DNA from: Escherichia coli
GTDB taxonomy: Bacteria; Pseudomonadota; Gammaproteobacteria; Enterobacterales; Enterobacteriaceae
Direction: 5' to 3' (one strand)
Length of the DNA stretch: 5,623 nucleotides
NCBI RefSeq assembly: GCF_003334385.1
Contig: NZ_QOWN01000080.1
This document shows, one piece after another, positions 2 through 5,021 of the stretch (positions are counted from its first letter, which is position 1; each line of letters starts with the position of its first letter). The position numbers were made by a program, and so were the translations under genes. The notes below the pieces were generated by a model. It saw nothing but the letters and a program-made list of their open reading frames with translations. It did not search any database and was not told the DNA's origin.

Positions 2-748
2 CAGGCACGGGCACAGAACGCGCAGTATCTGAGCGAACGCCTTAAGGACCAGGCAGCCTTTTATGCCGAATCGGATGCGCAGCGTGCGGACTGGCAGAAA
101 GGGCTGCAGGAGGGGTTCAGTAACTGGGTGGATAATGCGTCCGATTACGCCTCACAGGCAGCACAGCTGGCGACGGAGGGTATCTCAGGGATGGTGAATA
201 ACATCACGGAGATGCTGAACGGGAATAAAGTGGAATGGCGCAACTGGGCCTCATCCGTACTGCAGGAAATATCAAAAGTTCTTATGAATGCCGCGATTGT
301 CAACGGGATCAAGACGGCGGCAAACAGTATGTCCGGTGCAGGAGGATTTATTGGCAGTATTGGTGACTGGCTGGGCGGTGCGGTGGCCAATGCAAAAGGC
401 GGCGTGTATACCTCGGCAAACCTGAGTGCGTACAGCAACAGCATTGTGGATACGCCCACGTACTTTGCCTTTGCAAAAGGGGCCGGGCTGATGGGGGAAG
501 CCGGACCTGAAGCCATAATGCCCCTGACCCGGGCGGCGGATGGCTCGCTGGGCGTACGTGCCGTGGGCAGGATGAACGGGAGTGCGGGTCTGGTGTATTC
601 CCCGGTCTACCACATCGCCATTCAGAATGACGGGGCCAACGGTCAGATAGGGCCGGAGGCGGCAGGCAGCCTTGTTCAGTTGATTGACCAGCGGGTGCAG
701 GCGGTGATGCTGTCCATGCGACGAGACGGAGGAATGCTGAGTGGCTGA
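2..748 (+). CDS. H: Tail tape-measure protein (lambda gpH-like), C-terminal part; 5' end lies upstream of the window
   Basis: Frame 2 is open from position 2 to the TGA at 746-748 (the ORF track reports only the 128..748 part). Gly/Ala/Ser-rich C-terminus typical of tape-measure proteins. Position immediately upstream of an M homolog, with H stop overlapping M start. Assignment rests on synteny and recalled similarity, not a search. Confidence 0.7.
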   Translation, partial: QARAQNAQYLSERLKDQAAFYAESDAQRADWQKGLQEGFSNWVDNASDYASQAAQLATEGISGMVNNITEMLNGNKVEWRNWASSVLQEISKVLMNAAIVNGIKTAANSMSGAGGFIGSIGDWLGGAVANAKGGVYTSANLSAYSNSIVDTPTYFAFAKGAGLMGEAGPEAIMPLTRAADGSLGVRAVGRMNGSAGLVYSPVYHIAIQNDGANGQIGPEAAGSLVQLIDQRVQAVMLSMRRDGGMLSG

Positions 749-1082
749 GATAAAAACGCTGCATCTGGTCCCGCGTGAAGGGATGCAGGTGAGTGAGAAA
801 CCGTCGGTGGTGAGGGTCCGGTTTGGTGACGGTTATGAACAGCGCCGACCGACGGGACTGAATGCCCGACTGAAGACATTTCAGGCAGTGTTCCGGGTGA
901 CGGATGAGGCGACCCGGCGCTGGCTGGATGAATTTTTATCGTGGCATGGTGGTTACCGTGCCTTTTTGTGGAAACCCCCGAAACATAACCGGACGGTCAG
1001 GGTGGTGTGCCGGGAGTGGAGTATTACGGATAACGCCAGGTACAGCGATTTCAGTTGTATGATGGAACAGGTAATAAGATAA
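741..1082 (+). CDS. M: Minor tail protein M (lambda gpM-like)
   Basis: 113-aa ORF. GTG start at 741 preceded by GGAGGAA (728-734). Contains VRFGDGY and GLNA-LKT motifs that I recall from lambda M. Start overlaps the H stop, suggesting translational coupling. Confidence 0.8.
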   Translation: MAEIKTLHLVPREGMQVSEKPSVVRVRFGDGYEQRRPTGLNARLKTFQAVFRVTDEATRRWLDEFLSWHGGYRAFLWKPPKHNRTVRVVCREWSITDNARYSDFSCMMEQVIR

Positions 1083-2648: not shown

Positions 2649-3347
2649 ATGCAGGAGATCAACGAAGAAAGCCTGAATGAGTCGGTTAAATCAGAGCAGT
2701 CACCGCGGGTGGTACTCTGGGAAATTGACCTGACGGTGCAGGGTGGTGAGCGGTATTTTTTCTGTAATGAGCTGAATGAAAAAGGGGAGCCGGTCACCTA
2801 GCAGGGGCGGAAGTACCAGGCATACCCGATTGACGGCAGCGGCTTTGAGATGAACGGGAAAGGGAGCAGTGCCCGCCCGTCACTGACGGTGTCGAATCTG
2901 TTCGGGCTGGTTACCGGGATGGCGGAGGATTTGCAGAGCCTGGTGGGGGCCACGGTGGTTCGTCGCCGGGTGTATGCGCGTTTTCTGGATGCGGTGAATT
3001 TTGTGGCAGGCAATCCGGAGGCTGACCCGGAGCAGGAGCTGACGGACCGCTGGGTGGTGGAGCAGATGTCGCAGCTCACAGCCATGACGGCCTCGTTTGT
3101 GCTGGCGACACCGACGGAGACGGACGGTGCGTTGTTTCCCGGCCGCATCATGCTGGCGAACACCTGTATGTGGACCTACCGCTCTGATGAGTGTGGTTAC
3201 ACGGGCGGGGCGGTGGCGGATGAGTTCGATAAACCCACCACCGATATCCGTAAGGACAGATGCAGCAAGTGCATGCGCGGGTGTGAACTGCGCAGGAATG
3301 TCGGCAATTTTGGCGGTTTCCTTTCCATTAATAAACTTTCGCAGTAA
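2649..3347 (+). pseudogene. L: Minor tail protein L (lambda gpL-like) interrupted by an in-frame amber codon at 2799-2801
   Basis: ATG at 2649 (MQEINEESLNE...) to TAA at 3345-3347 is 699 nt, matching the lambda L length as I recall it. One TAG at 2799-2801 splits it into 2649..2801 and the track ORF 2850..3347, but the 16 codons between the stop and the next ATG (QGRKYQAYPIDGSGFE) continue in frame and read as tail-protein sequence. The track ORF start at 2595 would span the terminator hairpin and is rejected. Confidence 0.7.
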
Positions 3348-3357
3348 ATCCCGGTTT

Positions 3358-4101
3358 ATGACACAGACTGAATCAGCGATTCTGGCGCATACCCGGCGGT
3401 GTGCGCCTGCGGAGTCGTGCGGCTTCGTGATAACCACGACGGAGGGCGAGCGGTACCTGCCCTGTGTGAATATCTCCGCAGCGCCGGAGGCGTATTTTCG
3501 TATTGCCCCGGAAGACTGGCTGCGGGCGGAGATGCAGGGTGAGATTGTGGCGCTGGTTCACAGTCATCCCGGTGGTCTGCCCTGGCTGAGTGAGGCAGAC
3601 CGGCGACTGCAGATAAAAAGTGCCCTGCCCTGGTGGCTGGTCTGCCGGGGTGACATTCACAAATTCCGCTGCGTTCCGCACCTGACCGAACGGCGCTTTG
3701 CGCACGGGGTGACGGACTGTTACACGCTGTTCCGGGATGCATACCATCTGGCAGGCATTGATATGCCGGATTTTCACCGTGAGGATGACTGGTGGTGCAA
3801 CGGTCAGAACCTTTACCTGGACAATATGGAGGCAACGGGCTTTTACCGGGTGCCCCTGTCCTCTGCACTGCCGGGCGATATCCTGCTGTGCTGCTTCGGC
3901 GCATCGGTGGCTAATCATGCCGCCATTTACTGCGGCAACGGTGAACTGCTTCACCATCTGCCTGAACAACTGAGTAAACGGGAGAGGTATTCCGAAAAAT
4001 GGCAACGACGAACGCATTCTGTCTGGCGTCACCGCCACTGGCACGCATCTGCCTTCACGGGGATTTACAACGATTTGGCCGCCGCTTCAGCCTGTATGTG
4101 A
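3358..4101 (+). CDS. K: Tail tip assembly protein K (lambda gpK-like) with JAB/MPN (JAMM) and NlpC/P60 domains
   Basis: ATG at 3358 (MTQTESAILAH...). JAMM motif HSHPGGLPWLSEAD (H-x-H-x7-S-x2-D). NlpC/P60-like Cys (GVTDCYTLF) with downstream His residues (NHAAIYCG, LLHH). The track ORF start at 3097 is an out-of-frame read-in over the L 3' end and is rejected. No obvious Shine-Dalgarno; start is 10 nt after the L stop. Confidence 0.8.
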   Translation: MTQTESAILAHTRRCAPAESCGFVITTTEGERYLPCVNISAAPEAYFRIAPEDWLRAEMQGEIVALVHSHPGGLPWLSEADRRLQIKSALPWWLVCRGDIHKFRCVPHLTERRFAHGVTDCYTLFRDAYHLAGIDMPDFHREDDWWCNGQNLYLDNMEATGFYRVPLSSALPGDILLCCFGASVANHAAIYCGNGELLHHLPEQLSKRERYSEKWQRRTHSVWRHRHWHASAFTGIYNDLAAASACM

Positions 4102-4679: not shown

Positions 4680-4692
4680 AACATAAAAAAAT

Positions 4693-4717
4693 CCCGCAGT
4701 GATCGCGGAGCTGCGGG
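4693..4717 (-). terminator. Probable intrinsic terminator oriented for minus-strand transcription
   Basis: Inverted repeat CCCGCAG (4693-4699) and CTGCGGG (4711-4717). On the minus strand the stem is followed by T7 (plus-strand A-run 4685-4691). No T-run follows it on the + strand. Confidence 0.45.
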
Positions 4718-4788
4718 GACAGACAAATGAAGATTAATGTTAAGGAGTTGTTTTTGTTACTCGGGCAAAAAAACACTAACGCAGCGAA

Positions 4789-4816
4789 ATTATAAGCGCC
4801 ACAGTCAGTGTGTGAA
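4789..4816 (-). promoter_or_regulatory. Candidate sigma70 promoter on the minus strand (TTCACA-N16-TATAAT)
   Basis: Read on the minus strand: TTCACA (complement of 4811-4816), 16-nt spacer, TATAAT (complement of 4789-4794). Fires toward the minus-strand terminator at 4693-4717. Confidence 0.35.
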
Positions 4817-4890
4817 AATGTGAAGATATTCAGAATTTTTATGCCATTACCGGTTTTAACCAACAGGATTATCGGTGGGCATGAAAGAAA

Positions 4891-4918
4891 ACCCCGGTAT
4901 CTGCTGATACCGGGGTTT
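4891..4918. terminator. GC-rich hairpin with T-rich flanks on both strands; possible bidirectional terminator
   Basis: ACCCCGGTATC (4891-4901) pairs with GATACCGGGGT (4906-4916), 4-nt loop. Followed by TTCTGTTT on the + strand and by TTTCTTTCAT on the minus strand. Confidence 0.4.
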
Positions 4919-5021
4919 CTGTTTAGCATGGCAGAAATGTGTTTCATGCTTTTCGGGCGAAGGATATCCGACTTCTGTACGGAATGGCAAGTGGCGGTTA
5001 ATTTATTCAGGGGAAGGCTGT

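Follow-up and report, generated by a model that had tools for sequence, protein, structure and literature searches.

GTG start of the tail gene M within the 3′ end of the tape measure gene H in a lambdoid Escherichia coli prophage

In a lambdoid Escherichia coli prophage, translation of the distal tail protein gene M starts at a GTG codon (positions 741–743) that lies inside the last codons of the tape measure gene H, an assignment that is well supported by several independent lines of evidence. We regard as very probable the explanation as a whole, namely that M starts at this GTG, that its Shine-Dalgarno (SD) sequence is written in Gly-Gly codons of H, and that M synthesis is tied to H synthesis; the coupling of translation in this explanation, and the route it would take, we infer from the geometry of the junction. 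The window analysed here, a stretch of 5,623 nt (5.6 kb), was identified by PHROG scans as the tail-tip part of the prophage, and its genes run in the order H, M, a porin insertion, L, K, I and J, which matches annotated relatives. The same scans recovered the C-terminus of H, M (phrog_14), the porin, L in two pieces, K and I. Among complete E. coli genomes the best match is NZ_CP075632, which is 99.6% identical over the whole window and is annotated there with a tape measure protein, a phage tail protein, porin OmpC, L, a C40 peptidase (K), a tail assembly protein (I) and J. At the DNA level, any single phage record covers at most 72% of the window, because the porin segment is absent from all phage records. 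An Rfam scan of the whole window at the gathering threshold gave no credible match, and in NCBIfam a model for M or I was not found.

The H/M junction and the start codon of M

The 3′ part of H occupies positions 2–748 of the plus strand, with a frame that runs open back to the window's left edge and is closed by the TGA stop at 746–748; the listed open reading frame 128–748 ends at this same stop. The C-terminus of H matches phrog_1716 (tail length tape measure) with an E-value of 9.5e-101 over profile positions 718–927 of 943, and both NZ_CP075632 and the phage record ON470626 annotate a phage tail tape measure protein that ends at the equivalent base, the full-length gene in NZ_CP075632 being 3243 nt long. 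With this C-terminal profile match and its position before M, H is a tape measure gene. Gene M (741–1082, plus strand) encodes a 113-aa distal tail protein of the lambda gpM family. Its product matches Pfam PF05939 (Phage_min_tail; i-Evalue 5.6e-28) from model position 2 to 108 of 108, corresponding to residues 6–112, and phrog_14 (E 1.2e-35) from residue 2 onwards, while residues 2–108 of gpM in PDB 8iyk (chain 8iyk_M) align to M residues 5–112 (E 3e-25). The AlphaFold (AF2) model of M has a pLDDT of 79, and of ∼75 for residues 1–20, and its best PDB match is the lambda tail tip chain 8iyk_E, of gpM length (109 residues), with an E-value of 7.4e-10, TM-scores of 0.78/0.81 and 43% identity. 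A full-length profile match, a tube-like beta-sandwich fold and a place that directly follows the tape measure gene and precedes L-K-I-J thus characterize M as a gpM, and the names that the initial annotation had given to both genes are borne out, H by phrog_1716 and M by PF05939, 8iyk and the fold match.

In the M frame, a TGA at 738–740 stands directly before GTG 741, so that the M reading frame can begin no earlier than at this GTG, and it shares with H the 8-nt overlap GTGGCTGA (741–748). The only in-frame start candidates are at 741, 783, 789, 807 and 810, and upstream of the ATG at 783–785, which encodes Met15 and is the rival start, GTG 741 is the only one. The SD sequence GGAGGAA (728–734, plus strand) arises from two adjacent Gly codons, GGA GGA, at the H C-terminus (..RRDGGMLSG*); its predicted duplex with the 16S 3′ end has −9.5 kcal/mol at an optimal gap of 7 nt from GTG 741, compared with −2.2 kcal/mol at ATG 783. 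Both the position of the GTG within the last codons of H and the presence of this SD inside the H coding sequence had been read off earlier, and the coordinates proved exact. GGAGGAA occurs once in the 5.6-kb window; however, anti-SD pairing of at least this strength is found at 2.7% of all positions of the window and, among ATG/GTG/TTG triplets, at 3.1%; with ∼3% of positions reaching −9.5 kcal/mol, the SD by itself is thus modest evidence and its placement is what counts. What is not due to chance is the combination of the first in-frame start, the 7-nt gap and the position of the upstream stop, in a geometry that is kept in 23 distinct junctions from three protein clusters. The codon GGA accounts for 19 of 94 Gly codons (20%) in full-length H, and GGA-GGA for two of its eight Gly-Gly dipeptides, and the use of GGA-GGA is therefore too weak a sign to conclude that there is selection on the SD. 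The direct repeat CTGAG..CTGAG (737–741 and 745–749) was considered as the trace of an 8-nt duplication; removal of one copy does not give a lambda-like junction, and the repeat was taken as chance.

The segment between GTG 741 and ATG 783 has the properties of M coding sequence. M residues 2–14, upstream of Met15, are AEIKTLHLVPREG, and residues 5–14 align to residues 2–11 of lambda gpM. The cryo-EM structure of the lambda virion resolves gpM in full, with all 109 residues (PMC10721106), and thus the M segment before Met15 belongs to the assembled protein. When the M frame was translated independently of gene calls, the 106 junctions of the family survey described below gave 58 distinct N-terminal peptides, with Phe at −66 in 54 and Trp at −60 in 51 of them, both upstream of the Met15 position. 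Nucleotide entropy at the three codon positions of the M frame was 1.10/1.02/1.47 between −72 and −43, with a third-position peak that is also seen in the downstream coding control (1.14/1.00/1.69), and upstream of the GTG the entropy maximum shifts to the H frame. The coding region of M therefore extends upstream of ATG 783, and must begin at 741. RefSeq/PGAP and a GenBank phage record annotate the equivalent start, with the same 8-nt overlap.

We give a very small chance to the alternative that M begins solely at ATG 783, as a 99-aa protein preceded by a 34-nt gap instead of an overlap, the GTG and the SD being coincidental in H. ATG is the commoner start codon, 99-aa calls are found in several database entries (P0006, P0011, P0014 and P0033), and Met is strongly conserved at the 783-equivalent position, in 50 of 58 peptides, but both amino-acid conservation and third-position variation in the M frame reach further upstream, and residues 1–11 of lambda gpM are present in the virion. 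Moreover, a start at ATG 783 would cost the Pfam model its first ∼10 positions and would be without a usable SD, and in 7 of the 106 distinct junctions the equivalent codon is not a start codon. Alignment, conservation, entropy, Pfam, SD and annotation thus agree on GTG 741 as the start, as the initial annotation had held against ATG 783, and the latter is most likely an ordinary internal Met codon.

A mixed use of both starts, in which full-length 113-aa M would be accompanied by a minor, low-level 99-aa form lacking the first strand, is improbable. The 783-equivalent codon is a start codon in the other 99 of 106 junctions, and in some clades (L086 and L118) a GGAGGG-like element with −10.5 kcal/mol stands just upstream of it; however, with only 2 nt between its end and the ATG, the element in these clades is placed too near, and the conserved P-R-E-G-M codons account for the motif. 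ATG 783 of the window lacks an SD, the lambda structure contains full-length gpM only, and a 99-aa form would miss part of the beta-sandwich.

Public M homologues, namely the four entries named above together with P0015 and P0023, carry inconsistent start calls, which give proteins of 99 aa (from the internal ATG), 110–112 aa, or, in a sister clade, 117–118 aa. These longest calls start from an ATG without SD (+0.9 kcal/mol) that is missing in close relatives. The 113-aa call for M is correct, and since the database starts are inconsistent, the present evidence serves to fix the right call; beyond correct annotation its significance is small.

Stop-to-start distances in the family and translation of M

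Around M homologues, ∼400 loci from five scans of viral contigs yielded 129 distinct junctions, 106 of them with a long upstream ORF. In an initial set of 80 related loci, identity was 91–99% and the junction hardly varied (six variants), which made the set uninformative for codon-level tests; hence four more scans were seeded with divergent homologues. The distance from the H stop to the M start was −8 nt in 23 junctions, −4 nt in 29 (lambda included), −1 nt in 15, 0 nt in 15, +2 to +12 nt in 15 and 44 to 81 nt in 9, so that 82 of 106 junctions have one of the four values −8, −4, −1 and 0 and 97 of 106 have at most 12 nt, counts that refer to phylogenetically related junctions and not to independent samples. 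When M proteins were clustered at 80% identity, the start lay at most 12 nt from the H stop in 24 of 28 clusters. Because 9 of 106 junctions have spacers of 44–81 nt, this juxtaposition is not obligatory for the family. The −8/GTG form is present in three clusters, that of the window itself and two whose representatives are 70% (L093, L118) and 53–54% (L393, L399) identical to the window M. The three share an H C-terminus of the form ..RRDGG(M/L)x(S)(G/A)*, in which the Gly-Gly codons make up the SD and the GTG lies across the Ser and Gly/Ala codons, and all 23 distinct −8 junctions keep GGAGG or GGGGG as well as the GTG.

The start codon of M has itself turned over within the family. Relative to the GDGY motif, comparison of window positions 741–752 with L164 and other loci placed an ATG at −75 and GTG codons at −75, −78 or −84, always near the H stop. 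Such turnover with constant closeness to the H stop would indicate selection for coupling and not for a particular N-terminus; the M start has moved several times yet stayed a few bases from the H stop, which fits selective upkeep of short overlaps between subunits of one complex.

Coupling of M translation to that of H would be a reasonable reading of this geometry and of the literature. According to PMC10666635, −4, −1 and −8 nt are, in this order, the three commonest same-strand distances among 2.66 million prokaryotic gene pairs, distances from −8 to +10 nt are taken as predictive of termination-reinitiation, subunits of one complex are enriched among such close pairs, and the upstream gene's last 15 nt are enough. 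The H/M pair is co-directional, its distance of −8 nt is within this range, and GGAGGAA precedes the M start with a 7-nt gap. The initial annotation had called the arrangement ordinary phage gene packing, which is in line with the rank of −8 nt in that survey and with the fact that the H/M overlap is already annotated; arrangements of this kind are among the most frequent in bacteria and phages.

Both H and M are carried by the phage late transcript. A ribosome that ends H at TGA 746–748 would be 5 nt past the M start and ∼12–18 nt past the SD, and this closeness to GTG 741 would make a local restart by termination-reinitiation possible. A fresh 30S subunit may also bind the strong SD once an H-translating ribosome has opened the region; the two routes are both plausible and are not mutually exclusive. 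The outcome would be that M synthesis is linked to H synthesis, both proteins belonging to the same tail-tip complex. In the lambda tail tip the C-terminal helix of gpH and the gpM ring are both present, gpM as a hexamer and gpH at three-fold symmetry (PMC10721106).

It is also conceivable, though on balance unlikely, that M starts at GTG 741 by de novo initiation on its strong SD, independently of H translation, and that the overlap reflects genome compaction. The SD has optimal spacing, and when the RNA of 681–800 was folded, no significant structure hiding the SD or the GTG was found (MFE −36.5 kcal/mol, z −0.75), the sole stable element of the centroid fold being a weak hairpin around ATG 783; thus M could start independently of H. 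Moreover, lambda needs more copies of M than of H, and since pure reinitiation cannot exceed upstream translation, some independent initiation is likely; the nine family junctions with long spacers also work. On the other hand, close juxtaposition is kept in the 24 clusters despite start-codon turnover, and reporter assays show tight coupling for native E. coli pairs that overlap in this way (PMC10666635). We favour a GTG 741 start whose use would be coupled to H translation, probably with some independent initiation.

Finally, we give next to no credence to programmed +1 frameshifting at the stop of H that would fuse H to M with GGAGGA as stimulator, in the manner of prfB, and rejected this candidate. 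The TGA stop does have an SD-like element upstream, and with respect to H the M frame is shifted by +1, but the SD ends 9 nt from the last sense codon, whereas in prfB it ends 3 nt before the frameshift codon, and the junction is without a slippery codon, re-pairing from GGC to GCU being poor. Furthermore, the frame relation of H and M is not conserved, as distances of −8, −4, −1, 0 and +2 among relatives cover all three phases, and an H-M fusion is not seen in the lambda virion structure.

The porin insertion and genes L and I

Less ordinary than the H/M junction are two other features of the window, the porin gene at the M/L junction and the amber codon in L. Downstream of M, positions 1071–2645 form a 1.57-kb segment of low GC content (0.24–0.47, against ∼0.58 in the flanks) that is inserted exactly at the M/L junction. 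It carries an OmpC-family porin gene (1289–2452, 387 aa), which scores 496.7 bits with NF007841 at a cut-off of 484. In relatives without the insertion the M/L junction is a 1-nt TGATG overlap; by comparison with L002, the insertion rewrites the end of M from ..EQVVN* to ..EQVIR*, the last 3–4 codons being changed. Across 50,697 phage records, the best protein match to the porin has 68.7% identity and is NmpC/OmpD-like, located at another genome position and on the opposite strand, and 91 complete E. coli genomes carry the segment over the full length of the window. Porin alleles in the databases at 79–93% identity suggest a variable family. The segment resembles a ‘moron’, here in an unusual place within the tail operon; the literature, when searched for prophage porins lodged between tail genes, yielded no specific case, and the moron site at PR' in the anti-sRNA paper (PMC4104026) is in a different region.

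At 2610–2648 a strong intrinsic terminator, AGGGGCGCATTGCGCCCCT followed by T7, is located ∼20 nt before the start of L (ATG 2649). With this terminator-bearing insertion in front of it, L has lost its stop/start overlap with M, and it now relies on a weak SD of its own (−5.8 kcal/mol) and on polymerase, presumably Q-modified, reading through the terminator. Within L (2649–3347), an in-frame TAG at 2799–2801 replaces the TGG (Trp51) of the 99.6%-identical NZ_CP075632 through a single G-to-A change at 2800. In this strain L is a pseudogene or an amber mutant, and this probably prevents the prophage from making tails.

The start of I is ambiguous as well. PGAP places it at GTG 4098, in a GTGA overlap with the K stop, to give 193 aa; the frame is, however, open back to ATG 3999 (SD −8.5 kcal/mol), which makes the true start uncertain. 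The longer form has 226 aa and overlaps K by 103 nt, and phrog_4244 aligns from its residue 1. In lambda, K and I overlap in the same manner as this long form.

The 343-nt non-coding gap between I and J (4680–5021) is 99% conserved in PPompW-type phage records, where it is unannotated. On its minus strand, a promoter-like site close to consensus, TTCACA-16-TATAAT (4816 to 4789), is accompanied by a terminator-like hairpin with a T-run (4709 to 4693); judged by these motifs, the pair would produce a ∼95-nt transcript. The plus strand has a 22-aa ORF (4727–4795). An Rfam scan of the gap with E up to 1 gave no credible match, and the z-score of its fold was −1.24.

Comparison with known systems

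The lambda H/M junction has the same gene order and the same proteins, the core of lambda M being 47% identical to that of the window, and there too the M start overlaps the H stop, with a strong SD inside H (−10.8 kcal/mol). The two differ in form, in that lambda has an ATGA with an ATG start and a 4-nt overlap, whereas the window has a GTG start and an 8-nt overlap. The Met1 codon of lambda aligns to ATA (Ile4) of the window, whose start is 9 nt further upstream, and hence the N-terminus of the window M is three residues longer than that of lambda gpM. Within the window, the K/I junction is likewise a stop/start overlap of tail genes (GTGA, 4098–4101, as called by PGAP), but it differs from H/M in the upstream extension of the I frame and the long overlap with K that this entails.

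Short same-strand overlaps of −4, −1 and −8 nt are coupled by termination-reinitiation according to Huber et al. 2019 (PMC6728339) and PMC10666635, and the H/M pair is likewise co-directional with an 8-nt overlap. It resembles this class also in that its SD falls inside the final 20 nt of the upstream gene and its products are subunits of one complex. Among the E. coli pairs tested experimentally are hyfH-hyfI, ydbH-ynbE and menD-menH, and H/M may be coupled in a similar way. The H/M junction of the window thus differs only slightly in form from that of lambda; it is already annotated publicly, belongs to a well-described class, and is not novel.
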